64,000 nucleotides of DNA, taken from the IMG/VR virus record IMGVR_UViG_3300027754_000037. The stretch is one strand, 5' to 3'. The stretch is from a virus. Lineage: Duplodnaviria > Caudoviricetes. Within the stretch, counting starts at the first letter, position 1. Each line of letters opens with the position of its first letter. The notes beneath the pieces are model-generated. The model did no database searches, was not told the DNA's origin, and worked only from the letters and a program-made list of their open reading frames with translations. A program made the position numbers and the translations under genes. Positions 24,469-62,750 of the stretch are shown one piece after another.

Positions 24469-24509
24469 AATGAATATATAGTTTGCCGACATATTTTACA
24501 AGGAGGGTC

Positions 24510-25580
24510 ATGAAAAACGATTTTTCAAAACTGATGCTGATTGGAATCTTATCCCTTGCCTTAGTCTTAATATTTAATCTAAAAACAAAGTCTTACCCTG
24601 AGCCTAAAGTTGCTCAGGTTCCAAAAAAAATAGTTCCTGAAGCAGGACCGCAAACATATCCAGAACCAAAATCTCCACAGATTTCCAACCCTATTCCAAA
24701 ACACCTCTCCTATCCTCAAACCGTCGAACAACTTAAAAATTGGAATAAAGAAGCTCCAGAACTCACAGAAGTTGGCATATACGGCCAATCTAAAAAGGGC
24801 ACAGACCTGTTTTATATTCGAGTCAATAATAAATTAGATAAAAATACCAAACCAGTCATTCTTATTACAGCTTGCATTCACGGAAATGAATCATGGAGCG
24901 CAGGTATCACTATGGGATACTTGGGCAATTTACTCAAGAATTATTCTACCGATCCCAAAATAAAAGCACTCATAAATTCTCGTGATATTTATTTTATTCC
25001 AGTTGTTTCTCCCGACAGTTATACCCAGCAGAGATTTGTTGATGGAGTTGATCCCAACCGTGACTTCCCCACTCCTAAAAACAAAACACACCAAAGCACT
25101 CCCAGCGTTGCTGCACTCCGTGAATTCTACTGGAAAATTAAACCACACGCAGTTTTGTCAGGACACACATACGGCAGGCTTTTTCTCATTCCTTACGGCG
25201 ATCAATATGGGAAAAATTCCAACCAATCTGATTATGATGCGATTGTTGGCAAAATGGCTAAAATGGCCAATTACAAAATGATTCATTGCGTTGAACTTTA
25301 CAAATCACCAATCGACGGTACTGAAGTTGACTGGTTCTATCGAAACGGCAGCTTTGCTGCTGTTATCGAATACGGCACCCACCAACACAAACCCAGTCTG
25401 CAAGAAATTAAAGACGAACTTAAGTGCACCCAAGATGCAATTACATATTTCATAGAAAAATCACCAGATATCAAAATTACTACGGTAGATAATGAAATTG
25501 ACTTTAGCCAGAACACAGGAATTGCAAAAGAATATCACCGCAACTCCGATGGTGCTCTAAAATCAATTAATCCTCACTAA
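24510..25580 (+). CDS. Membrane-anchored M14 zinc carboxypeptidase
   Basis: AGGAGG SD, N-terminal TM, CIHGNE (HxxE), VDPNRDF, SGHTYG, IEYG. Confidence 0.92.
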   Translation: MKNDFSKLMLIGILSLALVLIFNLKTKSYPEPKVAQVPKKIVPEAGPQTYPEPKSPQISNPIPKHLSYPQTVEQLKNWNKEAPELTEVGIYGQSKKGTDLFYIRVNNKLDKNTKPVILITACIHGNESWSAGITMGYLGNLLKNYSTDPKIKALINSRDIYFIPVVSPDSYTQQRFVDGVDPNRDFPTPKNKTHQSTPSVAALREFYWKIKPHAVLSGHTYGRLFLIPYGDQYGKNSNQSDYDAIVGKMAKMANYKMIHCVELYKSPIDGTEVDWFYRNGSFAAVIEYGTHQHKPSLQEIKDELKCTQDAITYFIEKSPDIKITTVDNEIDFSQNTGIAKEYHRNSDGALKSINPH

Positions 25581-26165
25581 ATTCTGAGTCATAAGATAAA
25601 GATAACGCTCATAGGAATCCCTCAAAACATTCATCTCCTTGGGCGTTATCGCATCTAAATTGAATGTTCTCTGAAAAGGAATCAATAAATTTGGATCAAA
25701 ATTGATACTTGTTTTTAGTCCTAAATATTTCTCAAGCAAACCAATACCACGACTACTTGCCAAATCATCATATGTCAATAACAATGACCCCGATGATTTT
25801 TTTGACATTTCATAAAGTCTGCGTAACCTAAAACTGTAATACCTGCAAGCAAATGATGGATTTCTTTTTTCGTTGCCAATCATATAGCCCATCACAGCTT
25901 CCGGTTCTCTCAACACAAATATTAACTTGCAGTAATCATAAGCCGATTTGGTACTAATTTGATGATTCCTTACAACCTCGTCCAAAAAAATTGCTGATTT
26001 ATTGCCTAATTTATGATGATTTTTTGTTAGATAATAGAAATTCAAGGGGCTTTCATATCTGTTTTTGTTTCTAAAACCCTGAATCCTAATATGATCATTC
26101 AACGACTCATATAAGGCTGTCGATCCTGAATACTCATGACTGCAAATTAAAACTATTTTTTTCAT
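25563..26165 (-). CDS. Sulfotransferase-like P-loop protein
   Basis: HEYSGSTAL (5'-PSB-like), IFVLREP, LLTYDDL; likely start MKKIVL. Confidence 0.6.
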   Translation of the reverse strand: MKKIVLICSHEYSGSTALYESLNDHIRIQGFRNKNRYESPLNFYYLTKNHHKLGNKSAIFLDEVVRNHQISTKSAYDYCKLIFVLREPEAVMGYMIGNEKRNPSFACRYYSFRLRRLYEMSKKSSGSLLLTYDDLASSRGIGLLEKYLGLKTSINFDPNLLIPFQRTFNLDAITPKEMNVLRDSYERYLYLMTQNLVRIN

Positions 26166-26236
26166 AATGTCCTTTGGAAGAAAAATACCTTTACTTTGAT
26201 AACTAAAACAAGCGTGATTATGCAAGGGAACTAAAA

Positions 26237-29200
26237 ATGGCTCCGTTATGGTCTGATTTTTTCAAGCTTTTTTCCTACTCCAGCGAAGCCGATCCGCTCG
26301 CTCGCCGTAAAGATCCCCGTCAATTCAGTTCCGCAGGCATCAGCCAACCAGAAGCTATCGGCGCAGATATCAACAATCCGCAGAATGTAAGCGGAGGACT
26401 CAGCAGCTACCGCCAAACAAATGACATGATTGACACCACTACGCTGTCAAATCGTGCTATGCGTTATAAAGAGTATGAAAGACTTCGTAATGTTCCAGAA
26501 ATCGAAGCTGCCATGACCGTCTTTGCAGACGAATCTTGTGTTGCCGGTAACACTAAAATTGCCACTCCCTTTGGATTTATCACCATCAAGGAGCTCACAG
26601 AAAAAAGAGCCGACGAAAGATTTCTTGTTTATTGCTATGATTTTGAGAAAAAAGACTACACCTTGGGCTGGGCATACTCTCCACGAATCGTAAAGCGTGC
26701 CCCCACCATCACAGTCGTCCTCGATGATGGATCAACATTCACAGCCACAGAAGACCACCGTGTTCTGAAAAAAGACGGTACTTGGTGCGAAACAGGAGAC
26801 CTTGAAGTCGAAGATGAACTCATGCCCTTTTACCGTGTGAAAGCCAGCCAAAATCACACCAGACTGAGAACAGCACAATACCCCAGAATCTACACCAAAA
26901 ATAAAGGCTGGATTCACGAAAGACAATTTGTAGACGACTGGAGAACAGGCAAAATAACTCCAAAAATGCAAGCCGTAAATCTGGGATGTAGACTATACGC
27001 AGATGGACTTAAAACTGTACAAGTCGCTGAAAGACTTGGACACGATTGGAGAACAGTTGGAGAATGGCTCGCACGAGAGGGATTTACTACCAAGGAAATT
27101 AAAAGACTCAATCGATTTGAAAAAGAAAGAAGAATCATAGGCATCGAACCCGGACCAGTTCAGGATGTCTACGACCTCTCCGTCGAAAAACACATGTGCT
27201 TTGCCACCGATAGCGTCATTCTCCACAACTGCCAGAAAGACGAAAATGGCAATATTATCAAAATTACCACGGAAAACCAAGATATAAAAGATGAGATTGA
27301 TTTTCTGCTCATGAACCGCAAAATGCTCAACCTCAACAGAAATGCATGGGTTTGGTTCAAAAATCTCTGCATTTCAGGTGACTATTTTGTTGAACTCGTA
27401 ATCAATCCAGAAAATCCCAAAGAAGGCATATACAGAACCATGCCTCTCCCATGCGAAACAATGTATCGCATCGAAACAGTCAAAGGCAAAATTATTGAAT
27501 ATCAACAAAGCAAAGAAGGACCAGATTATCAAGCCATCGTGCGTGGCTCCGTAAACGATATGACCGATACAGAACTCAACCAAACAACAGCTATACGCTT
27601 TGCACCAAGCCAAATCGTTCACTTCCGAATCGGTGATGATCGCAAAACCTTCTATCCCTACGGCCAATCCCTAATCGAACCAGCCCGTGGACCAGCACAT
27701 AGTCTCAGAATGCTAGAAGATGCTATGGTTGTGTATCGACTTTGCCTTGTTGGCGATACAGTCATAAGTTTACAAAACGGAACAAAAAATATTCGTGATA
27801 TCAAGGTTGGCGACACAGTCCTATCCTACGATTGCGACGGAAAATTGATTCCAACCAAAGTCGTTTGTCATGTTAACAACGGAATTCAAAATGTTTTCTC
27901 AGTCAATAGCAAGCACATTGAAATCGTTGGAACAGCAACACATCCCTTACTCGTTAATCGTCAAGGCGTATTGCAATATGTCGATATTCAAGATTTGATT
28001 CCAAAAACCGACAAGCTCATTTGCGTTACAAGAAATGACAATGTATTGACGCAAATACCCAAGTCTACTAAAGAACCTTGGGCCAAACTTTCCTCAGAAA
28101 TGCGAACCGCATTTAGAAATGGAAATTATGAAAATATTTCCAAACTTCTCAAAAATTGCAAAGTAAAAGATAACAGAGCCAAACAGTTTTTGTATGCCGA
28201 AAGCAAAGCCTTGCCTATCAATTTAGCCAAAAATGTTTGCGATATTTTTGAACTCGATCACTCAAAACTCATCATCACTAAAAAAAGTCAAGTTTATTCT
28301 GAAAAAATCAATCTTCCAAAATTTGTTGATGAAGAATTTGCAAGATTGTTTGGATTCTTGATTGGGGATGGTTCCATTTCAAGAAAATTATGCAGAATTG
28401 TTTTTTCTGCTGGCGAAAAGCAAGAAGTCAATCAAAAGTATGCAGGCCTGCTGCAAAAGTATTTTGGTAAGGTATCATACAACCCAGATAAACGAGGAAA
28501 ATTTGGTAATTACTGCGTCTCATCCGCAAGAGGCGCTGAAATTTTCTTGGAATTGGGCTACATCCCCGGAGCAAAAAACAAAAGAATTCCACAATGGGTG
28601 TTTACATCCAACCCCGAAATTCGCAAAGCTTTTGTAGAAGGAATTAGTGATGCTCATGGTTGCCAAAGAACAACATTCAAGGGAACTTGGTTTTCCACGA
28701 TTGAAATTTGCAACAAAGAACTTGTGAAAGACATCAAAAGCGTTTGGGCATCAATCGGTCTTTCTTCTGGTAAAATTAAAGAAAGACAAAGAAAAGGTGG
28801 TCACGAAATCACCAAAAATAGTTTGATGAAATCTACCACATCACATTCCATAACAATAAGCGAAAAAGAATTGCCTCAGTATGAAAATGTTTGTAGCATC
28901 ACGCCCTGTGGTCAAGAAGAAGTTTATGACATCACGGTAGACAATGAACTACACAATTTCATAGCAAACGGTACACCTACCCATAACACACGGGCACCTG
29001 AAAGAAGGGTTTTTTATATTGATGTTGGCCAATTGCCTCCTTTCAAAGCTGAAGCTTTTATGGACCGCATCAAGGATCAATTCCGCAAAAGAAAAGTCAC
29101 TAGCAACAGCGGAAGTCCCGGAGCAAACCAAGTTGAAGAAAAATGGATGCCTCCAGCACAAGACGAAGACTACTGGTTGCCAATTCGTCCAAATAGCAAC

Positions 29201-30013
29201 ACAAGAATCGATACACTACCCGGTGCTGAAAATCTGGGAGAAATCGATGATGCAGTTTATTTCCGAAATAAACTCCTCACGGCTCTCAACTTTCCCAAGA
29301 ATTACTTCAACAATGAAGACCCCGGCGCTACAAGAATTACCCTCTCAGCACAAGATGTTAAATTTGCTCGCATGATCGAGAGACTTCAAAGCTACTTTGA
29401 AGACGGAATCATGGAAATAGCAGAAAGACACCTTCAACTCAGAGGATACCCAGAAGATAGCTACAAGGACCTCCGTATCAAAATGACCCCTCCAAGCGAT
29501 TGGAGAGAACTCTCAAGAGCAGAAGTTGTAAATGCCCGATACGGCAATGCCGGAACACTCAAAGGCAGTCAGTTAATGTCAGATTTTGACATCATGACAA
29601 AAATCCTCAAATATAACCAAGATGATGCCGACGAAATGCTGGCACGCCTCAAAATCCAAAAGCTTGAAGACCTCAAACTGCAAGTATTGGCCCAAAATCC
29701 ACAACTTCTGGGTGTTGGAATCCCAAGTGCCGAAGGCCAAGACCAAGAACTTGGTGCAGAAGCAGGTGGACCTAACTCTATGCCAGAACCCGGAGGCGAA
29801 GGAACTCCACCTGAAGGAGAACTTCCTCCTGAAGCACCGCCCGAGGGCTTGCCAGTACCATCCGAAGGACCGCCATCAGAAAAGGCTGGTACGGCAGAAC
29901 CAGTCAGCATCGCTGAACCCACAGATGATGATATCAAGAAATATGATCTGGAATTACAAGGTTTCGATATTGAATCCGACCTTGAAGACATCGACTTCAG
30001 CGTGAGGAGCTAA
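26237..30013 (+). CDS. gp20: Portal vertex protein (T4 gp20-like) with two inteins; about 612 aa after splicing
   Basis: EDAMVVYR-RAPERRVFYIDVG, EDYWLPIR, IDTLPGAENL..IDD..YFRNKL...L.FP, E.KFARMIERLQ. Confidence 0.95.
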   Translation: MAPLWSDFFKLFSYSSEADPLARRKDPRQFSSAGISQPEAIGADINNPQNVSGGLSSYRQTNDMIDTTTLSNRAMRYKEYERLRNVPEIEAAMTVFADESCVAGNTKIATPFGFITIKELTEKRADERFLVYCYDFEKKDYTLGWAYSPRIVKRAPTITVVLDDGSTFTATEDHRVLKKDGTWCETGDLEVEDELMPFYRVKASQNHTRLRTAQYPRIYTKNKGWIHERQFVDDWRTGKITPKMQAVNLGCRLYADGLKTVQVAERLGHDWRTVGEWLAREGFTTKEIKRLNRFEKERRIIGIEPGPVQDVYDLSVEKHMCFATDSVILHNCQKDENGNIIKITTENQDIKDEIDFLLMNRKMLNLNRNAWVWFKNLCISGDYFVELVINPENPKEGIYRTMPLPCETMYRIETVKGKIIEYQQSKEGPDYQAIVRGSVNDMTDTELNQTTAIRFAPSQIVHFRIGDDRKTFYPYGQSLIEPARGPAHSLRMLEDAMVVYRLCLVGDTVISLQNGTKNIRDIKVGDTVLSYDCDGKLIPTKVVCHVNNGIQNVFSVNSKHIEIVGTATHPLLVNRQGVLQYVDIQDLIPKTDKLICVTRNDNVLTQIPKSTKEPWAKLSSEMRTAFRNGNYENISKLLKNCKVKDNRAKQFLYAESKALPINLAKNVCDIFELDHSKLIITKKSQVYSEKINLPKFVDEEFARLFGFLIGDGSISRKLCRIVFSAGEKQEVNQKYAGLLQKYFGKVSYNPDKRGKFGNYCVSSARGAEIFLELGYIPGAKNKRIPQWVFTSNPEIRKAFVEGISDAHGCQRTTFKGTWFSTIEICNKELVKDIKSVWASIGLSSGKIKERQRKGGHEITKNSLMKSTTSHSITISEKELPQYENVCSITPCGQEEVYDITVDNELHNFIANGTPTHNTRAPERRVFYIDVGQLPPFKAEAFMDRIKDQFRKRKVTSNSGSPGANQVEEKWMPPAQDEDYWLPIRPNSNTRIDTLPGAENLGEIDDAVYFRNKLLTALNFPKNYFNNEDPGATRITLSAQDVKFARMIERLQSYFEDGIMEIAERHLQLRGYPEDSYKDLRIKMTPPSDWRELSRAEVVNARYGNAGTLKGSQLMSDFDIMTKILKYNQDDADEMLARLKIQKLEDLKLQVLAQNPQLLGVGIPSAEGQDQELGAEAGGPNSMPEPGGEGTPPEGELPPEAPPEGLPVPSEGPPSEKAGTAEPVSIAEPTDDDIKKYDLELQGFDIESDLEDIDFSVRS
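26537..27229 (+). mobile_element. Intein 1 (231 aa) in portal
   Basis: S|CVAGNTKI block A, T.DHRVL block B, VYDLSVE..H..F...VILHN|C; no LAGLIDADG. Confidence 0.92.
27743..28987 (+). mobile_element. Intein 2 (415 aa) with LAGLIDADG domain
   Basis: L|CLVGDT, TATHPLL, GFLIGDGS and EGISDAHG, VYDITV...HNFIANG..THN|T. Confidence 0.95.
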
Positions 30014-30267
30014 TGGATCAGACACCCTTGCAACAACTCATGAGCCTTGTATTTAAAAACAAAAGACTCGTCCAGCAGTCAACACAAGCTGGATGTATCT
30101 TTTGTTGCAAGGTATACGAAAGCAAAGACATCACAAAATACACGGATAATGATCAAACATGCCTATGTCCAAACTGCGGTACTGATGCCGTGCTGGGAGA
30201 CATGGGAGGCTACACAATCAACGAGGAAAATCTAAAAAAAGCCAATCAATACTGGTTCAAATACTAA
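30013..30267 (+). CDS. Small zinc-binding protein
   Basis: GCIFC...TCLCPNCGTDAVL. Confidence 0.65.
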   Translation: MDQTPLQQLMSLVFKNKRLVQQSTQAGCIFCCKVYESKDITKYTDNDQTCLCPNCGTDAVLGDMGGYTINEENLKKANQYWFKY

Positions 30268-30623
30268 TTTGTATCGCTAGAGTAACCGTCCGCTGAATGA
30301 GGGGCCAAAGCATCAGGCTCCTGACCAGTCTTGTCTCCAAGTCCCTTCTCCGTGAAGTGAGGATTCATTTTTGGACGCATATCCTGAAAACTATCCAACT
30401 TGTGACGAGTCAATATGGCCTTGATATCGGGATCGTTGCGGTATTGGTTCAGAAAACTTATAATAATTTCAGGCCTTGTGTCGATAATTCTTTTCAAAGC
30501 ATCCATAGCTATATCTAAGTTCTGTTTCGACTGAGGATCATAACCATTGTGGTCCTTGGAGCTTGACTCACCGTCATATGCTGCCACTTCCTTCTGGACA
30601 ACAAACTCCTCAAATGTTTTCAT
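30264..30623 (-). CDS. Hypothetical with CTS-like N-terminus
   Basis: MKTFEEFVVQKE after GAGG SD. Confidence 0.7.
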   Translation of the reverse strand: MKTFEEFVVQKEVAAYDGESSSKDHNGYDPQSKQNLDIAMDALKRIIDTRPEIIISFLNQYRNDPDIKAILTRHKLDSFQDMRPKMNPHFTEKGLGDKTGQEPDALAPHSADGYSSDTN

Positions 30624-30823
30624 ATTTTTCCTCAAATTTAAGTCCAATTGCATACTTATATACTAGAAGGATTTAAAAATAACGATTATTGGTGCGAATT
30701 TGACTCTTGAGGTATACATACTGTCATTAAGAAAGCAATTGTGTTTCTTTGGAACATAAGCAAGTAAGCGCCGTAACGCATGAGTATTCAGACTTTAACA
30801 AGCATAGAGGGAGTCAATTGATT

Positions 30824-32677: not shown

Positions 32678-33337
32678 ATGGACAATCAGGTACTGTTTGT
32701 TGACTGCTGCGGAGGCCTCTGCATGAGCCTCAACGAGTCGGTTTCCGATAGGGGACTGACTCGCTTCCGAGGGAAATTCCAAGAAGCCGAAGCCATCAAC
32801 AAAAACAAGAGAATCTATCCCTACGCTGTTCTAGACGAGAATTTCAAGAAACTCACGCCCATCATCGAAGCCCGTGGCCTCATCGGTGAGCTCGACCACC
32901 CTACAGACAGCATTATCCACTTCGAGAAGGCATCCCACATCATCACTAAGCTGTGGTGGGATGGAAACAGCCTGATGGGAGAAGGAGAAATCCTCAATAC
33001 CCCACATGGAAAAATCCTCAAGAGCCTCCTCAATGACGGAGTACGCATCGGTATCAGCAGCCGTGGAGTAGGAAACGGAAGAAGCGATGAGAACGGCATC
33101 CTCGTCATCGGTGAAAGCTACAAGCTCATCACCTTCGACGCTGTAGCCGATCCCAGCACCCACTCCGCTTTCCAAGAGAAAGTAGCAGGAGCCAAAAAGG
33201 AAAGCTACAATCCTACACCCTCAGCAGCAGCATCAACAAACACGACTGCTCGCAAAACCGTCAACAAGGATGCCCTCCTAGCTTGCTTGGGTGGTATCAT
33301 CGAAAGCAAGACCAAGAAAATCACAAGCAGACTGTGA
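32678..33337 (+). CDS. gp21: Prohead core scaffolding protease, T4 gp21-like
   Basis: NKNKRIYP, GELDHP, IGISSRGVG, FDAVADPS. Confidence 0.95.
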   Translation: MDNQVLFVDCCGGLCMSLNESVSDRGLTRFRGKFQEAEAINKNKRIYPYAVLDENFKKLTPIIEARGLIGELDHPTDSIIHFEKASHIITKLWWDGNSLMGEGEILNTPHGKILKSLLNDGVRIGISSRGVGNGRSDENGILVIGESYKLITFDAVADPSTHSAFQEKVAGAKKESYNPTPSAAASTNTTARKTVNKDALLACLGGIIESKTKKITSRL

Positions 33338-34428: not shown

Positions 34429-34436
34429 CATATATA
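34429..34436 (+). promoter_or_regulatory. Late-like promoter CATATATA for scaffold-capsid unit
   Basis: Same octamer class as other late genes; 21 bp before scaffold ATG. Confidence 0.55.
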
Positions 34437-35387: not shown

Positions 35388-36824
35388 ATGAACGCAAATT
35401 CAAGATTTTTGAACGAAGCTAGGGAGTTAGAAACTCGCTGGAAGAAGACCGGACTCCTCGAAGGTATCCAAGACCGCCACATTCGCTCTGCTACCGCAGT
35501 TCTACTCGAAAACCAAAGGCTGATGAACGAAGTCAGCACCGACACAGGTGATGTTGCTCAATTCAAACGCATCAGCATTCCCCTTGTTCGTCGTATTTAC
35601 CCCCAGTTGATCGCTAACAAAGTCGTCAGCGTTCAACCCCTGCTCGGACCAACCGGCTTGGTGTACTATCTCCGCTTCCGCTACTCCACTAACAAGGGTG
35701 CTACCCGTGGTGCTGATAACAACGGCGGTTTCCCCGGTGACGATGCAAACTCATTGATGCAGAAGGCTGATGGTACTGCAAATTTGGATATCTTCTACTC
35801 CAGCCAATTCGTTCAAAACGAAAGCACCAATACTGATGCTGGCTTGGGAGTTGTGTCCACCTATGCTCCTCTTGAACACACACCAGTCCTCGCCGGAACT
35901 ATGACCGGAACTGTCTATGACGGCGCTACCGCTGTCCAGACATTCACCGTTTCCGCTGCTAACTCTTTCACCTTCACCACCATTGGCACTCCCGACCCTT
36001 CAGTATCTAGCGGTAGCCTGAACACCACCACCGGCCAACTGGTACTCAACTGGAGCGGCGCTCCCGGTCCTAACCGTGTTGTAGTCTCCTACGAGTACAA
36101 TATGGAGTGCAATCAAGACCTCCCCGAAATCAATCTCGTCATTGAGTCGGAAGAGATCGCTGCCAAAACCCGCAAGCTGAAAGCCGTATGGAGCTACGAG
36201 GCCCAACAGGACCTCCGCAGCCAACACAACCTCGACGCAGAGGCCGAATTGACTGCTGTTCTCGCTCAAGAAATCAACCTCGAAATCGACCGTGAAGTTC
36301 TGACCGACCTCCGTAACAACGCCGGTACTGTCAGCGCATGGGACTTCAACACCGCACTCGGTGAGACCATCAAGGAAAAGTACGAGAGCCTCTATGTTAA
36401 GGTTGTCGAGATTTCCAATGTCATCCACAGGAAGACCCTGCGTGGTGGCGCTAACTGGATCGTGACCAGCCCCGAAGTCGCTTCGATCTTCGAGACTGCA
36501 ACCGCCGGTTTCGCTCCCGCTCCTTCCGAGACATTCACCAGCAGCTTGGGCATCCAATATGTCGGTACTGTCAACAACCGTTGGAGGCTCTACAAGGACC
36601 CCCTGTTCCCAAGCAACCAATTGCTCATGGGATACAAGGGCGACTCCTACATGGACAGCGGATATTTCTACTGCCCCTATGTGCCTCTCACCCAGACCCC
36701 CGTTGTGCTTGACCCAGAGAGCTTTTGCCCACGCAAGGGAATTCTCACAAGATATGGAAAAAAGTTATTACGGGAAGGTGCCAAGTTCTATGCCCGCATG
36801 AGTATCGCAAATTTTGTGATTTGA
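35388..36824 (+). CDS. gp23: Major capsid protein, T4 gp23-like
   Basis: IPLVRR, VSVQPLLGPTGLVY.LR, AKTRKLKA.WSYE.QQDL...H.LDAEAEL...EI..EIDREV, FYCPYVPL, TRYG. Confidence 0.98.
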   Translation: MNANSRFLNEARELETRWKKTGLLEGIQDRHIRSATAVLLENQRLMNEVSTDTGDVAQFKRISIPLVRRIYPQLIANKVVSVQPLLGPTGLVYYLRFRYSTNKGATRGADNNGGFPGDDANSLMQKADGTANLDIFYSSQFVQNESTNTDAGLGVVSTYAPLEHTPVLAGTMTGTVYDGATAVQTFTVSAANSFTFTTIGTPDPSVSSGSLNTTTGQLVLNWSGAPGPNRVVVSYEYNMECNQDLPEINLVIESEEIAAKTRKLKAVWSYEAQQDLRSQHNLDAEAELTAVLAQEINLEIDREVLTDLRNNAGTVSAWDFNTALGETIKEKYESLYVKVVEISNVIHRKTLRGGANWIVTSPEVASIFETATAGFAPAPSETFTSSLGIQYVGTVNNRWRLYKDPLFPSNQLLMGYKGDSYMDSGYFYCPYVPLTQTPVVLDPESFCPRKGILTRYGKKLLREGAKFYARMSIANFVI

Positions 36825-36911: not shown

Positions 36912-36940
36912 TTGTTTTTTGACTAGATATGTGCTATAAT
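36912..36940 (+). promoter_or_regulatory. Sigma70-type promoter TTGTTT-N17-TATAAT with extended -10 (TGc)
   Basis: Perfect -10 with TG extension upstream of 36969. Confidence 0.65.
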
Positions 36941-36968
36941 GAAGTTATCCAACATAAAGGAGGCTTCG

Positions 36969-37763
36969 ATGTCCACGAATAAGTACACACGCAAGCATTA
37001 CTACGAAACCAAAAAAGCTGCTGCTCCCGTTCATGCGGAGTCCTCATATGAATTACGAGCCGTAGTTCTGATCGATGATAACGACGACATTGTATTCTTT
37101 GAGGACCATCAAAGTTTCATAGCAAGTAGCGGTCAAAAAAGACTGTTTGATTTTTTGGTCACTTTGAGAAATGGCGATAAAAAAATAATCGAGATCAAAC
37201 CAAAAAAAAGACTCGGTCAATTTACGGAACAAATCAGAGACAATCGTGAATATGCTGCCTCCAAGGGCTGGCTGTTTGAGCTTTGGACTGAAGAAGAACT
37301 TGGATTTAGAGATAGCAAACAAATCACAAGCTGGGCTGATGAATTCATCAAACAGAGAACTGGAATAGATTATGGTGAAGTCCGTAGGCAAAAAACAAAT
37401 TTAAAAGCCAAGAGGCATTATCGTTCAAAAATAGCCAACGACACGGTGACGGTCTTCTGTGCATTCTGTAATGAGGAGCATCATCCCTTGAGGCTCACGC
37501 ATGGCCGTAATATCGCCAGAAATGGCCATTACATCTGCGAACGAGAGGGTGGCCACATAGCTGGGAGCAAGCCTAAAACCAGCCGTATAAAGGAAAATCC
37601 CTATGCTTCTGAGGGAAAGAAGAAGTGTGCTGGTGAGTGTGGTCAGATATTGGAGTTTGAGTGTTTTTCACCTGACAACAGCAAGCGTGATGGTTATTGC
37701 TCATCCTGTAAAGTTTGCAGGAGCGCCAAGGGCAAAAAGAGATATCACGAGAATAAACGGTAG
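36969..37763 (+). CDS. TnsA-like PD-(D/E)XK endonuclease with C-terminal Zn finger (probable mobile endonuclease)
   Basis: ESSYE, FDFLV...IEIKP, F.LWTE; C-terminal KKC..CG.....F.....DGY.S.CK.C; AAGGAGG SD. Confidence 0.75.
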   Translation: MSTNKYTRKHYYETKKAAAPVHAESSYELRAVVLIDDNDDIVFFEDHQSFIASSGQKRLFDFLVTLRNGDKKIIEIKPKKRLGQFTEQIRDNREYAASKGWLFELWTEEELGFRDSKQITSWADEFIKQRTGIDYGEVRRQKTNLKAKRHYRSKIANDTVTVFCAFCNEEHHPLRLTHGRNIARNGHYICEREGGHIAGSKPKTSRIKENPYASEGKKKCAGECGQILEFECFSPDNSKRDGYCSSCKVCRSAKGKKRYHENKR

Positions 37764-37880: not shown

Positions 37881-38771
37881 TTATGACTGTTGAACTATCT
37901 GCTGCTGTGACTGCATCTGTGGCATCTGTTGTTTGTTAGCGCCTGTTGCTTGAGGCTGCGACTGCATCTGTGGCACCCCAGAAACCTGTTGTTGGTTCAT
38001 TCCCGCTCCTTGAGGTGGTGTCCAAGTGACACCTTGAAGTCTTGGGAAGTGGTCAGCACCTAGGAAAAGCAAGCCGCCATTTTTTTTAGCAAATGGCACA
38101 ATCTGATCCTCTCTATTTTTTTCTGCTGCGTCTCCAAGTACGCTGAGTGTATTTCCCTTTTCTTCCCACATTTTATTTTCTGCTTGCAGAAGCCATTGTT
38201 TGAATTCAGCAGCTTTATCTCCTTTGAATTCCTGCTGCTCGAAATCTGGGAATACTTCTCGCACAACATCAAATATTTGTTTTATTTCTGCATCGCTTAG
38301 TTTTTTATTTACACCTTTATTTGCGAAAGTTCCAGCGCCGTTTGCTAGTGCGCTTCTGAGAGCATCGCCTATTGTATTTGAATTTTGGAAGTCGATCTTT
38401 GGTGAGTTCGTATCCCAATTAGCTTTAACGCTGGAGAAGACTGGTACACCGGCATGAAATCCGGGCATAGTGACATCGTCATCGTAGGAGCCGTTGTTTT
38501 TGGGGTTTTGGACACCCAGAACTTTTTCTAAATACGATTTTTCGGGACCGTTACCAAATTGTCCCTCTTCGCCTATGCCCTCATACCGATATCCATACTT
38601 CTCGCAGATATTTTTTGCATATTCTTTTGCGATGTTATCGGATGGTGGTGCAATTTTTGTGGTGCCGGGTTTATCTCCATGTGCTGATGGAATGATAATC
38701 GCATTGCCGACATAGGCGAAACCGTTTCCGGCTTGTTCGATCAAATATAGCCATTCTTTGAAATTCAGCAT
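37881..38771 (-). CDS. Hypothetical with CTS-like N-terminus and Q-rich tail
   Basis: MLNFKEWLYLIE; no SD; CATAGATA 4 nt upstream. Confidence 0.75.
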   Translation of the reverse strand: MLNFKEWLYLIEQAGNGFAYVGNAIIIPSAHGDKPGTTKIAPPSDNIAKEYAKNICEKYGYRYEGIGEEGQFGNGPEKSYLEKVLGVQNPKNNGSYDDDVTMPGFHAGVPVFSSVKANWDTNSPKIDFQNSNTIGDALRSALANGAGTFANKGVNKKLSDAEIKQIFDVVREVFPDFEQQEFKGDKAAEFKQWLLQAENKMWEEKGNTLSVLGDAAEKNREDQIVPFAKKNGGLLFLGADHFPRLQGVTWTPPQGAGMNQQQVSGVPQMQSQPQATGANKQQMPQMQSQQQIVQQS

Positions 38772-38775
38772 AAAT

Positions 38776-38783
38776 TATCTATG
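38776..38783 (-). promoter_or_regulatory. Late-like promoter CATAGATA 4 nt before ATG, inside a 12-bp hairpin
   Basis: Arms 38761..38772 and 38780..38791 are perfect inverted repeats. Confidence 0.65.
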
Positions 38784-38789
38784 CTGAAT

Positions 38790-39443
38790 TTATTTTTTTT
38801 TTCTGATTTCAGAGATGAGATTTTTGAGCAGGTTGGAGGCTTCGTTTATAAGTTGGCTTTTGCGCACATCGATATTGTTTTGGCTGTAGGGTTTTTTGTA
38901 GCCGAAAACAGCGCCTTGGATGCAATTATCGGGAACGAAGATGCCTGAGTAGCGGCATTGGTTAACGATGGGCATGATAGCTTCTTTGGGGCTGATATTG
39001 TCTTGTGTTTTGTAATCAGCCATAGCTAAGGGCAATTTACGGTTATTGTAGTCATTAGCTCCGTCATCGCCGTGTATGAAAAACGCTCCTACTTTGCCTT
39101 CGTAGTGATTTTTGAGCAGTTCCTTGTATTTTCCTGACTGTTCTAATTTGGTGGTTTTATTGGGGTCTTTGATATCTTTTCCCATGAGTTCTTTGGCATC
39201 TTCACGGGTAAGTGTGAGGTTGATGCAGACGAGGCGGTCAAATAGTGCTTTGACTTGGCTGGATGGTGCGGACCAATGTACTGGGGTAAATACGGCAAAG
39301 CCGTGTGCTTTTTCAAGTCTTTCGTAGACATTTTCTTGGTGCATGAGGTCATCTGTGCCATCATTTTTGTCATAGCAACTGCAAGGGTAGTGGCAATGGA
39401 AGCCGTTAGCAGAAGAACTACACAAAAGTTGCATTGTCGGCAA
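38790..39443 (-). pseudogene. NAD(P)H-dependent FMN reductase/flavodoxin-like, apparently N-terminally truncated
   Basis: CH.PCSCY, VFTPVHW.APSSQVKALFDRL present; N-terminal GSxR FMN-phosphate loop absent, in-frame stop about 11 codons upstream. Confidence 0.6.
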
Positions 39444-39744: not shown

Positions 39745-39987
39745 ATGAATAAAGCTATGAAATACAAGCATGTGTTATATCCTGTGACCAGCCAAGGTAA
39801 GTTGAGGCAGCTTCTCAGATTTTATCAGTCTGATTTAGCATTTGGTAAAACTTCTAGAGACCCTAAAGAGGTAGCTGAGGTTTTGTTGTGGTTTGATAAT
39901 GAAAGTGCCAAATTCAAAAATTCAACTAAAAGGGTGTCGAGTCTTATTGCTGCTCTCTGGTCGCAGTATTGTCGGAGCAATGGTTAA
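39745..39987 (+). CDS. Hypothetical protein
   Basis: Track ORF 39718..39987; ATG candidates 39745 or 39757. Confidence 0.55.
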   Translation: MNKAMKYKHVLYPVTSQGKLRQLLRFYQSDLAFGKTSRDPKEVAEVLLWFDNESAKFKNSTKRVSSLIAALWSQYCRSNG

Positions 39988-41138
39988 TAGCCGCTTGACA
40001 GAAGACCTCGCACCCGCCAACCAGAAAGGTATCTCTTCACAACTATTTTGCCTAGGTCAGCGATAGCTTGGTTTACAACTTTCAAATACCTCTCCACAAG
40101 GACTTTCTTGCTGATATCTACAGATTTTTCTTTGTATAGCATATACATTGCCAGTACGGTATTGAAAGCTCCTATAGCCAGCAAAGTACCTCCCGACAAA
40201 GCTCCAGCAACTGCTGAGAAAGCAGCGCCAGCGACTCCGGCGTACTTCTCGATGCTTGTGAGGGCACTTGAGCTTTGAGGCTTATCTATAATCTCCTGAA
40301 TTTCTCCAGCAAGCAACCTAAACTTAGGATGTTCTTGGTCGATAAATCCTACTAACTCCTCTGTGCTCATATTGTTGATATTGCGCATGATGATTTGAGC
40401 TTCCCTCAAGTTGGCAGAGGGATTGCGTTGTTTGAGGAGCAAGTTTAAAAATTGTTCCAAGCCTTGAAGGGTGGGCTCACCGCTTGAAATTTGTTTCATT
40501 TGGCCTTGTTTCAAATCCATTTTTTTCTTGTCACCAAGGGCACGAAGATCATTCTTGATAGTATCCAAATCGCCGTCAAATTTCTTGGAAATTTTGTCGG
40601 TGCCAGTACGCTTTTCTGGTGTTGCCAACCAATTCTTATAAAAAATGGCAGCTTTATCGTACATTAAATTACGATAATCATTCAGATTGTAGGTCTCATC
40701 GAGTGCTTCTACGCTTTCAAATTTTCTGCCGAACCAGTTAGCAAGAATCCAATTCTTATAGCGAGCTCCCAAGGCTTTTTTATAGTTGTCTAGAGTTAAA
40801 GCAGCACGATAGTAAGCATCGCTTTCCTTATTTTTTTTGGAGTATGCACCGAGTGTTATGCTAATCATCTTGGCCAGCATGTCGTTAAGACCGCCGAGAA
40901 ACCTATTGGCGAGAAATTTCATGTCGGATTGTTTAAGTTTTGAATCAATTTTTGAAGGTGGAGGTGGTTCTGGCATGGGGACATCTTTAATTCCAGAGGC
41001 ATTTAGGGATGCTGCCTTATCATCGCCTTTGGCGTTAATGTCTTCTAATTGCAGTATTTGAATCTTTGACTCTCTTAGGTCAAAGTCATTGATGCTGAAG
41101 CATTCTTCGGTGTTGAGCCATTCTTTAAGATTAAGCAT
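39984..41138 (-). CDS. CTS-like protein with C-terminal Gly/Ala hydrophobic segment
   Basis: MLNLKEWLNTEE; TATAGATA 4 nt upstream; AGVAGAAFSAVAGALSGGTLLAIGAF. Confidence 0.75.
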   Translation of the reverse strand: MLNLKEWLNTEECFSINDFDLRESKIQILQLEDINAKGDDKAASLNASGIKDVPMPEPPPPSKIDSKLKQSDMKFLANRFLGGLNDMLAKMISITLGAYSKKNKESDAYYRAALTLDNYKKALGARYKNWILANWFGRKFESVEALDETYNLNDYRNLMYDKAAIFYKNWLATPEKRTGTDKISKKFDGDLDTIKNDLRALGDKKKMDLKQGQMKQISSGEPTLQGLEQFLNLLLKQRNPSANLREAQIIMRNINNMSTEELVGFIDQEHPKFRLLAGEIQEIIDKPQSSSALTSIEKYAGVAGAAFSAVAGALSGGTLLAIGAFNTVLAMYMLYKEKSVDISKKVLVERYLKVVNQAIADLGKIVVKRYLSGWRVRGLLSSGY

Positions 41139-41166
41139 AATGTATCTATATTTTTGGTCTCTGGTT

Positions 41167-41607: not shown

Positions 41608-41611
41608 AAAT

Positions 41612-41619
41612 TATTTATG
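41612..41619 (-). promoter_or_regulatory. Late-like promoter CATAAATA 4 nt before ATG, inside a 13-bp hairpin
   Basis: Arms 41598..41610 and 41614..41626, one G-U pair on the minus-strand RNA. Confidence 0.65.
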
Positions 41620-46941: not shown

Positions 46942-46956
46942 ATTTAGGAATTTATC

Positions 46957-47307
46957 ATGGGAGCCACAACCACACAAGGAACTGGACCCGGAATGGCTCA
47001 CCCCAAACCGGGACTTCAAAACAAGAAGATTAATGAAGCTGCGCAAGTTAGTTTATCTTTGAATAATTTTTTTGGTCCTAGGGTTGTGGCTGCTGGAATT
47101 ATCAAATTGCAGGGCGAAACCGGTAAGGTTTGTTTTGCAGCGCAAGTTGGCAACATCAAGGATTACTGTGTGCTGTTGACGAACAACAGCCCCAGTAATC
47201 CTTTTCTTTCATATCCTCTATCTGAGGAATCCCAGTTTTGGTCATTTGAGGTGACGGCTGGCATCAACGATGTAGTTTCCTATGTTGTTTTGAGGTCAGG
47301 AAGCTGA
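46957..47307 (+). CDS. Protein sharing the N-terminus of 46393 gene
   Basis: Identical first 12 aa MGATTTQGTGPG. Confidence 0.7.
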   Translation: MGATTTQGTGPGMAHPKPGLQNKKINEAAQVSLSLNNFFGPRVVAAGIIKLQGETGKVCFAAQVGNIKDYCVLLTNNSPSNPFLSYPLSEESQFWSFEVTAGINDVVSYVVLRSGS

Positions 47308-47872: not shown

Positions 47873-48409
47873 TTAATCCTCCAAGATACCGGCATCGTTG
47901 AGTGAGCGTGCAAGTTTTATTAGGTGCTTGCACATACCCGGAAGTTCGAGCGGATTGCTTGAACCCGGATTTGTTTTCGCCTCGTACTTCTTCCTGACTG
48001 TGCCGTACAGCGACTTATCTTTTTTGTCTTCAAAATTGAAACGATAATAAAAATCGCTACAGTTACAACGAAGGGCTACTTCGTTGTTGGCATTAAGTTT
48101 GTCGAAAAAGTAATTGCGTCCATCGCTTGCGACTATTTCCACCCAATTCCGATTATCTTTGGAGTTGTGATAATTCACTTTTTTGAAGAGAATTATTGGG
48201 TTGTATTCCTTACCATTTCCTTCGTTCTTCGCCAGACCTTTGACGAATAATGTTCTGACACCCTTGTAGGGTAGCCAATTCATTTGTTTGATAACAATTT
48301 CATCGATTGAGTGTTGTCTTTTAGCTGTTTTGGGAAAAGCCTGTACTGTAGATTTGTATAAATCGTACAGGTTGGATTCCTTGATCAACAGATAATCGTT
48401 GAAATTCAT
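47873..48409 (-). CDS. SWIM zinc-finger protein with CTS-like N-terminus
   Basis: MNFNDYLLIKE; RCNCSDF...MCKH; TGTAAATA 4 nt upstream. Confidence 0.75.
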   Translation of the reverse strand: MNFNDYLLIKESNLYDLYKSTVQAFPKTAKRQHSIDEIVIKQMNWLPYKGVRTLFVKGLAKNEGNGKEYNPIILFKKVNYHNSKDNRNWVEIVASDGRNYFFDKLNANNEVALRCNCSDFYYRFNFEDKKDKSLYGTVRKKYEAKTNPGSSNPLELPGMCKHLIKLARSLNDAGILED

Positions 48410-48495
48410 GTAGTATTTACACATTTCCTGATTATTTCGTAAACAGCATACTTAATTATCGTTGATAATGGTGAAATTAATGTTTGAGGTGCATC

Positions 48496-52990: not shown

Positions 52991-53205
52991 AGTGTGACAT
53001 GCCGGACTGTTGTAACGATTTTGTTAAAACTTATAAATTACATGGAATTTATGCGGGAGTGGCGCAAAAAGTCGAAGTGTATTTTTGCAATAATCACAAG
53101 ATCAATGAAATCAACAAAAGAATTGATGAAATATGCGATAACAAGATTTGTACTTTGCAGAATGTGAATCCATTTAAAGATGTGAAAATGCACATCAATT
53201 CATAG
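52987..53205 (+). CDS. Small Cys-containing protein
   Basis: CDMPDC, FCNNH; ATGA overlap. Confidence 0.6.
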   Translation: MKCDMPDCCNDFVKTYKLHGIYAGVAQKVEVYFCNNHKINEINKRIDEICDNKICTLQNVNPFKDVKMHINS

Positions 53206-53212
53206 ATAAAGC

Positions 53213-53419
53213 ATGAGGTCTTTTAAAGAATATCTATCAGACAAGCTTTCACATGACCAGCCTCCTAGTGCTGGCGATTTGGGAGACAATCACTCCAATG
53301 CTGACAGGAATTTTGGTCGTAGTGGCGCTAAGTCGAAGAATGTGATGTCCGGGGGGTCTAAGTCGATTAGTGATTTGAATCCAGATCGTTTATTTGGCAA
53401 AAAAAGGTTTAAAAAATGA
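53213..53419 (+). CDS. Small protein with CTS-like N-terminus
   Basis: MRSFKEYLSD; CATAGATA at 53201..53208. Confidence 0.7.
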   Translation: MRSFKEYLSDKLSHDQPPSAGDLGDNHSNADRNFGRSGAKSKNVMSGGSKSISDLNPDRLFGKKRFKK

Positions 53420-53721
53420 ATTTTCAAAGATTGTGGGAAAACATGAAGTTGGGGGAAGAGAAAAAGCAGTCTCCCGATGACAAGGCCATGTCTGCAATCA
53501 GAACTGGTTTGGGTTTGCGTGAAGACTTTTGGGATGATTTCAATCTGATTGTGAATAACGCAGAGGGGTTATCAGCCCTGTTGGACATACCTGTGGAGAA
53601 GATATCCACATGGCGCAGCAAAGTTGAAGAGGTTCTTGACAAGGTTCGTGAGGCAGATGGCCAAAGCGAAGTGGGCAAGAACAAGAAAATTGTTAAAACT
53701 GGAATATCGGTGGGAGAATAA
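53416..53721 (+). CDS. Hypothetical protein
   Basis: 101 aa, coupled by ATGA. Confidence 0.7.
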   Translation: MNFQRLWENMKLGEEKKQSPDDKAMSAIRTGLGLREDFWDDFNLIVNNAEGLSALLDIPVEKISTWRSKVEEVLDKVREADGQSEVGKNKKIVKTGISVGE

Positions 53722-54104
53722 TGAAAAATTTCCTTGAATTTATGCAGATGAAAGAAGACGATAACCAATCCCAAATTGCACCGGGGGGTCAAACTCCCTT
53801 GGGTCACGCATCTGGCGCTGGAGCACTACCTCAGACTGCTCCCGGTTCTCAACACGAGGAAAAAATCATAGAGGAATTGGGCAATTCTTTGCGCCGTGTT
53901 CTGGAAGAGAAATTATTTCCAGCTTTGGAAAAAAGCCATTTAAGCAAGACTAGTGCCATGAAACTGCTGCAAACAATAGTGAGTGAGGTTGCCAACAAGT
54001 TTGGATTGAGCGCATCGGCAGTTCAACAGACAGGCAAGAATGCTATGACTACGAATTCTGAGCCTCGGATGCCTGCTCCGAATCAACCAACGGCTGCTGG
54101 CTGA
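53721..54104 (+). CDS. Protein with CTS-like N-terminus
   Basis: MKNFLEFMQMKE; TAATG overlap. Confidence 0.7.
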   Translation: MKNFLEFMQMKEDDNQSQIAPGGQTPLGHASGAGALPQTAPGSQHEEKIIEELGNSLRRVLEEKLFPALEKSHLSKTSAMKLLQTIVSEVANKFGLSASAVQQTGKNAMTTNSEPRMPAPNQPTAAG

Positions 54105-60267: not shown

Positions 60268-61365
60268 TTACCAGTCAGAACGAATAGCTTGAGTCAAATT
60301 GTTTACATCGACGGGTGTGAACAATCCATCGCTGTACTTGGTGTCTGCATTGCCAACCATGCTGTGGACGCTGTCCCACCAAGCTTGCTCTTCATTCTTG
60401 GATTCAGCCTTCTTGTGCTTCTTGCCCTTGTGCTTCTTGTTTCTCAGCATCGCAAAGTCGCCTGCGTCAATCTTGCCGTTTTTGTTCATATCCATTTTGC
60501 TTTGACCGCCCTTGAGCATCTTTTTCTTGCTCTTCTTTGCAAATTTAAGCTTGTTTTCATCCTCATCCTCATCCTCATCCTCATCCTCATCCTCATCCTC
60601 ATCCTCATCCTCATCCTCATCCTCATCCTCATCCTCATCCTCATCCTCATCCTCATCCTCATCATCGTCTTGCTGATCATCATCATCGGACCAAGCTTCG
60701 GCCTTCATCTTCTTTGTGCCGTATTTCTTTGACTTCTTTTTGCTCATCATTTTAGGAGATTCTTCATCATGATCTTCTTCATCATGATCTTCTTCATCAT
60801 GATCTTCTTCATCATGATCTTCTTCATCGTGATCTTCTTCATCATGGTCCTCGTGACCCTCTTCGTCATGATCTTCTTCGTCATGATCTTCTTCGTCATG
60901 ATCTTCTTCGTCGTGAACTGGTTTACCGACACCCTTCATGCCTTTATTTTGTTTTACACTATCCATGTCCTCATGTTCTTCATCATCATGATGATCTTCT
61001 TCTCCTTGTCCCATGTCCATCTTCTTCTTGGATTTCATGTGAGATTTCTTGCTGGACATAGCACCGCACTTAGAGCACTTCTTTTTAGACATTGAGCCAC
61101 ACTTAGAGCAGACGCTGATGTCGCCATCATCGTCGTGGCCGACAACATCGACATCTGCATCGTCAGAAGGTTTATCTTTGGCAGAGGAGGGCTTCACGAT
61201 CTCTCCATCACCTGTAACCATCTTCTTTTTCTTCTTCTTTTCAGACTTGACTTCTTCAAATCCATACTGAGATTGAATGCCAAGATTGCTGACCCTGCCC
61301 AATCCAAGGTTAAAGCTGGGAAGAATGGACTCATTCAAAGTCTTCCATTTTGTGTACGATAACAT
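60268..61365 (-). CDS. Acidic/basic low-complexity protein with CTS-like start and EF-hand-like loop
   Basis: MLSYTKWKTLNE; CSKCG x2; (DHDEE)n; (ED)17; DMNKNGKIDAGDF. Confidence 0.75.
   Translation of the reverse strand: MLSYTKWKTLNESILPSFNLGLGRVSNLGIQSQYGFEEVKSEKKKKKKMVTGDGEIVKPSSAKDKPSDDADVDVVGHDDDGDISVCSKCGSMSKKKCSKCGAMSSKKSHMKSKKKMDMGQGEEDHHDDEEHEDMDSVKQNKGMKGVGKPVHDEEDHDEEDHDEEDHDEEGHEDHDEEDHDEEDHDEEDHDEEDHDEEDHDEESPKMMSKKKSKKYGTKKMKAEAWSDDDDQQDDDEDEDEDEDEDEDEDEDEDEDEDEDEDEDEDEDEDENKLKFAKKSKKKMLKGGQSKMDMNKNGKIDAGDFAMLRNKKHKGKKHKKAESKNEEQAWWDSVHSMVGNADTKYSDGLFTPVDVNNLTQAIRSDW
60557..60658. repeat. (TCATCC)17 perfect tandem repeat
   Basis: 102 bp, encodes alternating Asp/Glu on minus strand. 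Confidence 0.95.
60761..60915. repeat. 15-bp tandem repeat (about 10 imperfect copies)
   Basis: TCATGATCTTCTTC(A/G) units encoding DHDEE on minus strand. Confidence 0.9.
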
Positions 61366-61454
61366 GATTGTCCTCTTAATAAAGAATATGAAACATAAGG
61401 AGAGTATATCAAAACTATATATGTCGAATAAAAATATTTTAGCAAGGAAATAAG

Positions 61455-62290: not shown

Positions 62291-62310
62291 TGTTGTAAAA
62301 CTTGACAACC

Positions 62311-62550
62311 TTATTTGTTGAGAGCTCTTCTAATCGCATCTCTTCGTAAAGCCTGCGTCTTCCTTTGTTCAGAAGTAACACCGCCGGAATTTCTGACGGG
62401 AGCAGGAGTCATTGAATTGTTGGTTTGTGCAGGATTCATGGCTGCTGTTACCGATCCTTGGATTCCACGAACATTGCCCGTGGGCCTGAGCATAGGTCTG
62501 CTACGGTAACTGCCGCCTGCCCCGCCTCCTTTACTGCATCCACAAGCCAT
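62311..62550 (-). CDS. Small basic protein (MACGC start)
   Basis: GGAGG SD; Gly/Arg-rich. Confidence 0.7.
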   Translation of the reverse strand: MACGCSKGGGAGGSYRSRPMLRPTGNVRGIQGSVTAAMNPAQTNNSMTPAPVRNSGGVTSEQRKTQALRRDAIRRALNK

Positions 62551-62563
62551 TTTGCCTCCGTAA

Positions 62564-62722
62564 TTATAAATATTTGATTCTGGCTATCTTGCTTTTTCTC
62601 TCTTCTACGGCCTTGATGCGATCTGCCAAATCCTTTTGACTTACCGTAAGAGGCCTAAAACCAAAATTTTTGGGTAGTGCTGATTTAGCTCCACAACCAC
62701 AACCTTTTTGATTTTTCTCCAT
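62564..62722 (-). CDS. Small basic protein (GCGCG), not in ORF track
   Basis: 52 aa MEKNQKGCGCGAKS...; CATAAATA at 62727..62734, 4 nt before ATG. Confidence 0.6.
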   Translation of the reverse strand: MEKNQKGCGCGAKSALPKNFGFRPLTVSQKDLADRIKAVEERKSKIARIKYL

Positions 62723-62750
62723 ACTCTATTTATGCTAGGAGATTTGCATT

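Follow-up and report, generated by a model that had tools for sequence, protein, structure and literature searches.

What would a late-type promoter box do if it stood so close to a start codon that no room was left for a leader? The question is raised by a 64,000-nt stretch of viral DNA (Duplodnaviria; Caudoviricetes; IMG/VR record IMGVR_UViG_3300027754_000037), which is referred to as the window below. In its intergenic gaps the octamer YATADATA, which resembles the late promoter box of phage T4 (TATAAATA), occurs repeatedly, and in several cases it ends 4 or 5 nt before an ATG that lacks a Shine-Dalgarno (SD) sequence. A first-pass annotation of the window had proposed that these boxes produce leaderless late mRNAs for a class of genes whose products start with peptides resembling the capsid targeting sequence (CTS) of T4. 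The analysis described here makes it probable that a T4-late-type box at this distance yields late transcripts that are leaderless, where both the position of the start site and leaderless translation are deduced from sequence features.

Box and spacing in the window

The octamer YATADATA is found 26 times in the window, as compared to 9.05 ± 3.4 expected from dinucleotide shuffles, and none of 100 shuffles reached 26. When the ATGs that open reading frames (ORFs) of at least 50 aa were considered, exact octamers were found to end 4 nt before the ATGs at 53213 (+), 62722 (-), 41607 (-), 41138 (-), and 38771 (-), and 5 nt before the ATG at 45114 (+). These six instances compare to ∼0.56 expected (Poisson p about 3e-5), and zero exact octamers are located 6 to 15 nt ahead of such an ATG. 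The remaining intergenic octamers lie 16 to 36 nt from the ATG with an AGGAG-like SD in between. The invariant part of the box is the core hexamer TA[AGT]ATA, which corresponds to the 3' six bases of the T4 box; in the window genome, CA or TA usually stands in front of it, and the first two positions of the octamer vary in relatives. The core hexamer ends 4 to 6 nt ahead of the ATG in eight SD-less window genes, which we refer to as leaderless-type (Table 1).

The same eight SD-less sites had been listed in the first-pass annotation, and all of them are present as described apart from corrections to strand and spacer. The sites at 24468 and 48409 do exist, but both are located on the minus strand and the spacer at 24468 is 6 nt (ACTATATA-ttcatt-ATG). 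For both genes it should be noted that another start codon is available in frame: an ATG at 48424, a few codons upstream of 48409, overlaps the box, and an ATG at 24492 is an alternative start for the 24468 gene. The annotation had also assigned CTS-like starts to seven of the eight genes, and we recover the same seven (38771, 41138, 41607, 45114, 48409, 53213, and 24468, but not 62722). Of the boxes that were said to precede SD-led genes, those at 3907, 8366, 34429, 45083, 46286, 50805, 54857, and 57643 all have an AGGAG-like SD downstream and an ATG after it; at 52394 the box is present but the start of the downstream gene is ambiguous.

The leaderless-type genes each own a box, even when they are closely spaced, as with the genes starting at 41607 and 41138, where the ATG of the second lies only 29 nt past the stop of the first. 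This matches the need of a mechanism that is limited to the first cistron. The hexamers are enriched outside of called genes, with 44 to 46% of them in the 14 to 18% of sequence that is non-coding in the window and in the relative G001, which is introduced below. As a separate observation, two hexamers accompany the ORF at 30264-30653 (-), one ending 3 nt ahead of its first ATG (30653) and one ending 5 nt ahead of an internal ATG in the same frame (30506), both of which are candidate starts.

Conservation of the spacing in relatives

Judged by its gene content, the window covers head and packaging genes of a T4-superfamily phage. Its clade is one of widespread freshwater T4-superfamily phages with genomes of roughly 0.5 Mb, and the DNA runs that contain the window stretch are freshwater or lake metagenomes. 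The nearest record in the phage collection is that of the 595-kb uncultured phage LR756511.1, which is ∼57% identical across the portal (tblastn). An exact 42-mer search matched only a 20-kb fragment in IMG/VR and no metagenome contig. The capsid protein has 382 relatives in IMG/VR, out of which 80 capsid-gene loci (1.05 Mb total) with 83 to 94% identity to the capsid protein were kept. One IMG/VR relative, G001, is a contig of 532,729 bp that is rated 100% complete. The GC content is 42% in LR756511 and 52.7% in G001, within a clade range of 40 to 53%.

For the spacing test, the hexamer TA[AGT]ATA was tallied at each offset from the ATGs of ORFs of at least 50 aa, using gene calls from home-made heuristics. 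The window has 6 hexamers at 4 nt and 2 at 5 nt, with 0 to 2 at each other offset below 15 nt. In LR756511, 28 were found at 4 nt and 38 at 5 nt (66 sites) as compared to about 5 per other offset and 15 at 6 nt. G001, which contains only 237 hexamers in 1.07 Mb (both strands), has 11 at 4 nt and 25 at 5 nt (36 sites) over a background of about 2.5, and the 80 capsid-gene loci have 41 and 54, respectively, over a background of about 12. The Poisson tails for the peak are 3e-5 for the window, 2e-26 for LR756511, and 2e-18 for G001. The pattern was also compared to a backwards control, giving 8 versus 2 in the window, 78 versus 30 in LR756511, and 39 versus 4 in G001. T4 itself has no peak (2 at 4 nt and 4 at 5 nt, with about 3 per other offset), and no excess over the backwards control was found for Flavobacterium immuto, P-SSM3, Syn19, Xanthomonas XbC2, or a Vibrio phage. 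The window, LR756511, and G001 share the peak, whereas T4 has none and the five T4-like phages show no excess; we conclude that the 4 to 5 nt layout is genuine, is maintained by selection, and is particular to this clade. Positional enrichment at this distance had been set as the test of the first-pass proposal, and counting the motif by distance returns a sharp peak in the window, both relatives, and the 80 loci.

The layout could, in principle, have no function and have been inherited by duplication of one ancestral 5' end that carried box, ATG, and CTS. The genes at 38771, 41138, and 41607 are obvious paralogues at the DNA level, and the T-even CTS genes are a diverse, shuffled, and fast-evolving set with the CTS alone in common (PMC3012670). 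However, spacers and flanks vary by site, about half of the leaderless-type genes are without a CTS, and the 4 to 5 nt spacing, together with the ATG-only rule and the -1 pyrimidine described below, is kept across the GC range of the clade, which requires selection. We regard inheritance without function as very improbable. Among the three paralogues, the codon for residue 2 is CTG, CTT, or TTA, and the peptide MLN[FL]K[ED]WL is kept. This synonymous variation in codon 2 under a conserved peptide indicates that the ATGs of these genes are translated.

Signatures around the probable transcription start

The peak is seen at ATG only, with GTG and TTG at background. Leaderless translation depends on which start codon is used, on the absence of any leader nucleotides, and on accessibility (PMC8459731), and the ATG-only peak agrees with the first of these dependences. 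The nucleotide before the ATG is likewise biased. A pyrimidine at -1 is found in 55/66 leaderless-type sites of LR756511 versus 212/477 SD-led genes (p 2e-9), in 34/36 sites of G001 versus 190/398 SD-led genes (p 9e-9), and in 9/9 sites of the window. Transcription starts usually prefer a pyrimidine at -1 and a purine at +1. The T4 late box is numbered -13 to -6 ("A(-13) in place of T", PMC2988020), and with this geometry a 5-nt spacer puts the A of the ATG at +1; 5 nt is the commonest spacer in both LR756511 and G001. With a 4-nt spacer, the start must sit 1 nt nearer to the box than in T4. At the SD-led boxes of G001, the sixth nucleotide after the box is a purine in 25/32 cases and the fifth is a pyrimidine in 19/32.

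Leaderless-type and SD-led boxes have common flanks, with G/C immediately upstream in G001. In addition, an A-rich, C-depleted patch is located at -20 to -15 from the hexamer in both box classes of LR756511 and G001 and is visible in the window too; no such patch is found at this position from the late boxes of T4. The common flanks and the upstream patch mark what we interpret as one promoter class and not a translation signal.

The opposite interpretation is that the box acts in RNA as an A/U-rich translation enhancer, a repressor operator (RegA-like, as in T4), or an endoribonuclease site, with transcription starting further upstream. Genes without an SD need another initiation aid, and at two genes a hairpin over box and AUG implies longer RNAs. 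One of these is a 12-bp inverted repeat at 38761-38791 (-), in which the box region pairs with the AUG and first codons of the 38771 gene (fold z -6.9), and a similar inverted repeat is located at 41598-41626 for the 41607 gene (fold z -5.3). LR756511 also encodes IF3-C (325993-326250, -), IF1 (180009-180197, -), and S21 (332226-332384, -), so these phages interfere with translation. Yet the same hexamer, A/T patch, and flanks are also found 13 to 40 nt ahead of SD-led genes. The patch lies ∼30 nt upstream of the ATG in register with the box, which is easier to explain by a promoter than by a translation signal and fits recognition of DNA by a sigma factor. A -1 pyrimidine next to an A is also the dinucleotide classically found at start sites. 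Moreover, G001 has the full pattern but zero IF1, IF3, and S21 genes. Taken together, we consider an RNA-level role unlikely and continue with the promoter interpretation.

Two mechanisms were considered and set aside. The idea that initiation factors encoded by the phage make leaderless translation possible is unsupported, given their absence from G001; another relative, G004, has two S21 genes (326-457, - and 88286-88447, +). Hairpin locking as a general rule was rejected, as the mean z in LR756511 and G001 is near 0 and does not differ from that of SD-led controls. The 38761-38791 repeat scores as terminator-like (intrinsic) on the plus strand. With respect to accessibility of the 5' end, less structure was found in G001 only (p 0.005), and there was no difference in the AT-richer genomes.

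A candidate late sigma factor

A relative of gp55 was not found in the 64-kb window. A gp55-like sigma of 179 to 203 aa was found in five of the six large relatives searched (LR756511 and four of five from IMG/VR); the fifth IMG/VR relative, which has no gp55-like match, is only 31% complete. In LR756511, the gp55-like ORF has 186 aa and was identified through the PHROG "late sigma transcription factor" (E 3e-7); this phage also has a shorter paralogue. T4 gp55 as a direct protein query had no match in LR756511, where only the PHROG profile matched, and phrog_12791 had no match there either. A phmmer search of the PDB with the gp55-like protein returned weak matches to sigma region 2 (best E 0.02), T4 gp55 not among them. 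The G001 sigma scores 31.4 bits with Pfam Sigma70_r2 (cut-off 24) and contains zero other sigma regions. The gp45 clamp family (PF02916) had zero matches anywhere, controls included.

Directly after the gp55-like gene, a conserved ORF of 77 to 92 aa (74 to 80% identity) is present in 5/5 relatives that have the sigma. It belongs to no Pfam or PHROG family. The AlphaFold model of this ORF has a pLDDT of 85, and Foldseek returned nothing significant. In an exhaustive structural scan, sigma region-4 or -35-binding domains made up about 20 of the top 24 rows, with Z of 5.0 to 6.4 and a root-mean-square deviation of 2.4 to 3.8 over 57 to 70 residues, values that are modest for a small helical protein. 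As a lead from these models, the sigma may be divided over two genes, one for region 2 and one region-4-like, and a region-4-like neighbor would fit the extra upstream element of the promoter. The first-pass view of the boxes as T4-type late promoters stands with respect to the box core, the head module, and the conserved 4 to 5 nt spacing, but the A/T-rich upstream element and the apparently split sigma depart from it.

A promoter of this kind might not require a phage sigma at all. If the host sigma read the boxes as ordinary -10 elements, leaderless transcripts would arise with no late class, and in many bacteria leaderless genes carry a -10-like TANNNT ∼10 nt before the start (PMC3160421). 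However, TA[AGT]ATA is without the invariant final T of the sigma-70 -10 element in any of the registers that keep A at position 2; its match is to the core of the T4 late box. The boxes precede head-module and CTS genes, the relatives retain a highly conserved gp55-like sigma, and a scan with the sigma-70 consensus gave 38 promoters versus 35.7 expected, which is no excess. Recognition by host sigma alone is, in our estimate, improbable.

Link to capsid cargo

CTS-like starts were called with a home-made heuristic, M-x(0-3)-[FL]-x-x-[WY]-L and, further on, an acidic residue at position 9 to 13. Eleven window genes match, of which seven are leaderless-type and four SD-led. The CTS-like share of leaderless-type genes is 7/8 in the window, 36/66 in LR756511, and 17/36 in G001, and 62/743 SD-called genes of LR756511 have such a start. 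The cargo class put forward in the first-pass annotation is borne out insofar as the association with the CTS is strong, but in relatives roughly one in two leaderless-type genes is without a CTS-like start, and the four SD-led window genes have one. The sequences indicate a strong link between the layout and putative capsid cargo that is not exclusive in either direction.

Cleavage by gp21-type proteases follows the rule that [LIM]-x-E ends the targeting peptide. By eye, [LIM]-x-E is found at residues 8 to 12 in 7/11 window CTS-like genes. The CTS-like peptides likely end in a prohead-protease site, and the gp21-type protease of the window is expected to be the enzyme that would remove them. 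Ten of the CTS-type proteins are essentially ORFans with respect to Pfam and PHROG, which fits the picture of T-even CTS genes cited above (PMC3012670), and for the 384-aa CTS protein (gene 39984-41138) zero relatives were found in IMG/VR. Nine leaderless-type proteins of relatives that have no CTS were assigned by PHROG to a head-tail adaptor, a tail lysin, and a DnaB-like helicase, the rest being without assigned function. From these protein functions, the label "late" for the leaderless-type class is weakly supported.

Proposed mechanism

We propose that the late promoter consists of the TA[AGT]ATA hexamer and an A/T-rich, C-poor patch 15 to 20 nt upstream. A gp55-like, region-2-only sigma, probably with the small adjacent region-4-like protein, would guide host RNA polymerase to these boxes. 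Two classes of late gene would result. In the first, which would comprise most genes, the box lies 13 to 40 nt before the ATG and the leader contains an SD, as in T4. In the second, the box ends 4 to 5 nt before the ATG and transcription would begin on the A of the start codon. The mRNA of this second class would have neither leader nor SD and would be translated via its 5'-terminal AUG. Only transcripts from the late promoter would be translatable, as read-through RNA would offer neither an SD nor a free 5' AUG; at two genes (38771 and 41607), the hairpin would additionally hide the AUG in read-through RNA. Box, ATG, and CTS would then form a compact unit of ∼45 bp marking late-expressed capsid cargo, with packaging and cleavage to follow. 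A bolder version, which we offer tentatively and do not yet favor, is that this unit, with the upstream A/T patch counted in, is portable and would make any ORF late-only, leaderless, packaged, and trimmed cargo, with a split sigma as its reader, loss of the leader as a temporal gate, and dozens of such units per genome.

Several points weigh against this mechanism. Leaderless translation would depend on a host with the capacity for it. Three of the eight window sites (38771, 41138, and 41607) are paralogues at the DNA level and are not independent. The sigma is seen in relatives only and none is encoded in the window. The commonest spacer of the window is 4 nt, for which strict T4 geometry would place +1 on the U of the AUG. 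A leaderless-type DnaB-like helicase in G001 is unexpected as a late gene. Lastly, the RNA from run X18, a lake metatranscriptome, consists of short assembled contigs inside genes (38563-38718, 42801-43604, 46397-47170, and 48028-48262), and contigs cannot show 5' ends.

Other features of the window

The coordinates of boxes and genes are collected in Table 1. Following the capsid gene, the gene at 36939-37763 (+) combines an N-terminal head-closure-like part with a C-terminal endonuclease VII-like part. A free-standing LAGLIDADG homing endonuclease (phrog_11023, E 4e-13) is encoded at 45697-46269 (-); its gene belongs to the SD-led class, and the late box lies 16 nt ahead of it. A tetratricopeptide-repeat protein at 62751-63998 (+) continues past the end of the window. 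In several metagenomes, a short stretch at ∼44548-44594 reaches 100 to 400x in summed contig depth and is flanked on either side by many loose ends; it looks like a widely shared repeat or a low-complexity coding segment.

Table 1. Boxes, leaderless-type and SD-led genes, and head genes of the window, with the sigma-adjacent ORF of relatives
Feature	Gene coordinates	Strand	Box (coordinates)	Box to ATG	Remarks
Leaderless-type, 296 aa, MLNFKEWLYLIE...	37881-38771	-	CATAGATA (38776-38783)	4 nt, ATG 38771	no SD; no Pfam or PHROG family
Leaderless-type, 384 aa, MLNLKEWLNTEE...	39984-41138	-	TATAGATA (41143-41150)	4 nt, ATG 41138	
Leaderless-type, 146 aa, MLNFKDWLTVE...	41167-41607	-	CATAAATA (41612-41619)	4 nt, ATG 41607	
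Leaderless-type, 67 aa, MKFADWLSRLNE...	45114-45317	+	TATAAATA (45101-45108)	5 nt, ATG 45114	
Leaderless-type, 178 aa, MNFNDYLLIKE...	47873-48409	-	variant TGTAAATA (48414-48421)	4 nt, ATG 48409	
Leaderless-type, 68 aa, MRSFKEYLSD...	53213-53419	+	CATAGATA (53201-53208)	4 nt, ATG 53213	
Leaderless-type, 52 aa, MEKNQKGCGCG...	62564-62722	-	CATAAATA (62727-62734)	4 nt, ATG 62722	without CTS-like start
Leaderless-type, 77 aa, MKQSFLDYLNKKE...	24235-24468	-	variant ACTATATA (24475-24482)	6 nt, ATG 24468	
SD-led gene		+	CATATATA (34429-34436)	21 nt, ATG 34458	adjoins major capsid gene upstream
CTS-like gene, MKSFDEYLVE...	43756-44028	+			SD-led
CTS-like gene, MQSFSEWLQE...	44722-45060	-	CATAAATA (45083-45090)	22 nt	GAGGTG SD between; ordinary T4-like layout; DUF6321 below cut-off, PHROG matches
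CTS-like gene, MKNFLEFMQMKE...	53721-54104	+			SD-led
CTS-like gene, MLSYTKWKTLNE...	60268-61365	-	CATATATA (61416-61423)	50 nt	SD-led
Further boxes of the SD-led class			3907, 8366, 23413, 43631 (-), 46286 (-), 50805 (-), 52394, 54857, 57643 (-)		
Large terminase (TerL)	14216-16066				family search
gp20-type portal	26237-30013	+			intein inside, carrying LAGLIDADG endonuclease (Pfam Intein_splicing, LAGLIDADG_3, Hom_end)
T4 gp21-type prohead (head maturation) protease	32678-33337	+			phrog_207, E 2e-46
gp23-type major capsid protein	35388-36824	+			Pfam Gp23, E 1e-86
Sigma-adjacent ORF	L127:1173-1409	-			relative, not window; also in L125, L126, L128
Sigma-adjacent ORF	L004:1865-2098	+			relative, not window

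Implications

A description of gp55-type boxes placed for leaderless transcripts was not found in open-access papers and preprints. What appears to be new is the combination of gp55-type boxes for leaderless-type genes, in dozens, with coupling to the CTS, a bipartite late promoter, and possibly a split sigma. Late transcription of T4 is a textbook system, and here the same box is placed where it would abolish the leader. In practical terms, the layout provides a simple sequence rule for locating where many of the ORFan genes of huge phages truly start, and proteins that are likely capsid-internal (ejected) could be listed from sequence alone. Capsid-internal proteins of T-even phages are often anti-defense factors. 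The layout further suggests that phages could use leaderless translation to time expression even where the host is an ordinary SD user, and it points towards a split sigma as the reader of a bipartite promoter.

Comparison with known systems

The closest known system is that of the T4 late promoters, which rely on the gp55 sigma, the gp33 co-activator, and the gp45 clamp. The likeness extends to the box core (TAAATA within TATAAATA), the implied distance from box to start, the small region-2-only sigma (here in relatives), and the placement of boxes before head and virion genes. Variation in the first two box positions was already known from phage Aeh1 (PMC2988020). In T4, however, full TATAAATA boxes lie 13 to 34 nt before the ATG, each gene is SD-led, and none has the 4 to 5 nt spacing that defines the leaderless-type class here. 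T4 late promoters are also without an upstream element, whereas an A/T-rich patch is located 15 to 20 nt upstream of the boxes described here, and where T4 has gp33, the neighbor of the sigma in this clade resembles sigma region 4.

The CTS-like starts are similar to the CTS of T4 IPI-III and gp67 in being N-terminal peptides of ∼10 residues. As read from the T4 genome, its CTS genes begin with MKTYQEFIAE (two genes), MKTFKEFIKE, and MLLEFKQFLYE, as compared to MLNFKEWL...E here and MKTFKEFAALKE in LR756511. They also have in common an acidic residue in an L/I-x-E-like context and a gp21-type protease within the same module. T4 has only a handful of CTS genes, all of them SD-led, whereas leaderless-type CTS starts number at least 36 in LR756511 and at least 17 in G001.

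The T4 genes e, soc, and I-TevI are hairpin-locked on early read-through RNA and freed on late transcripts. The genes at 38771 and 41607 are alike in that the stem pairs the start codon with sequence that would be absent from the late transcript; they differ in that this concerns two genes only and that a bare AUG is buried rather than an SD. Lastly, the Thermus phages phiYS40 and Lalka27a provide the known case of a phage temporal class (middle/late) whose transcripts start on the initiator codon. Those phages are unrelated and use other boxes (e.g., TAGGGT), and leaderless mRNAs are common in the lineage of their hosts. In the clade described here, by contrast, the box is that of a gp55-type promoter and leaderless-type genes make up just a part of the late genes.

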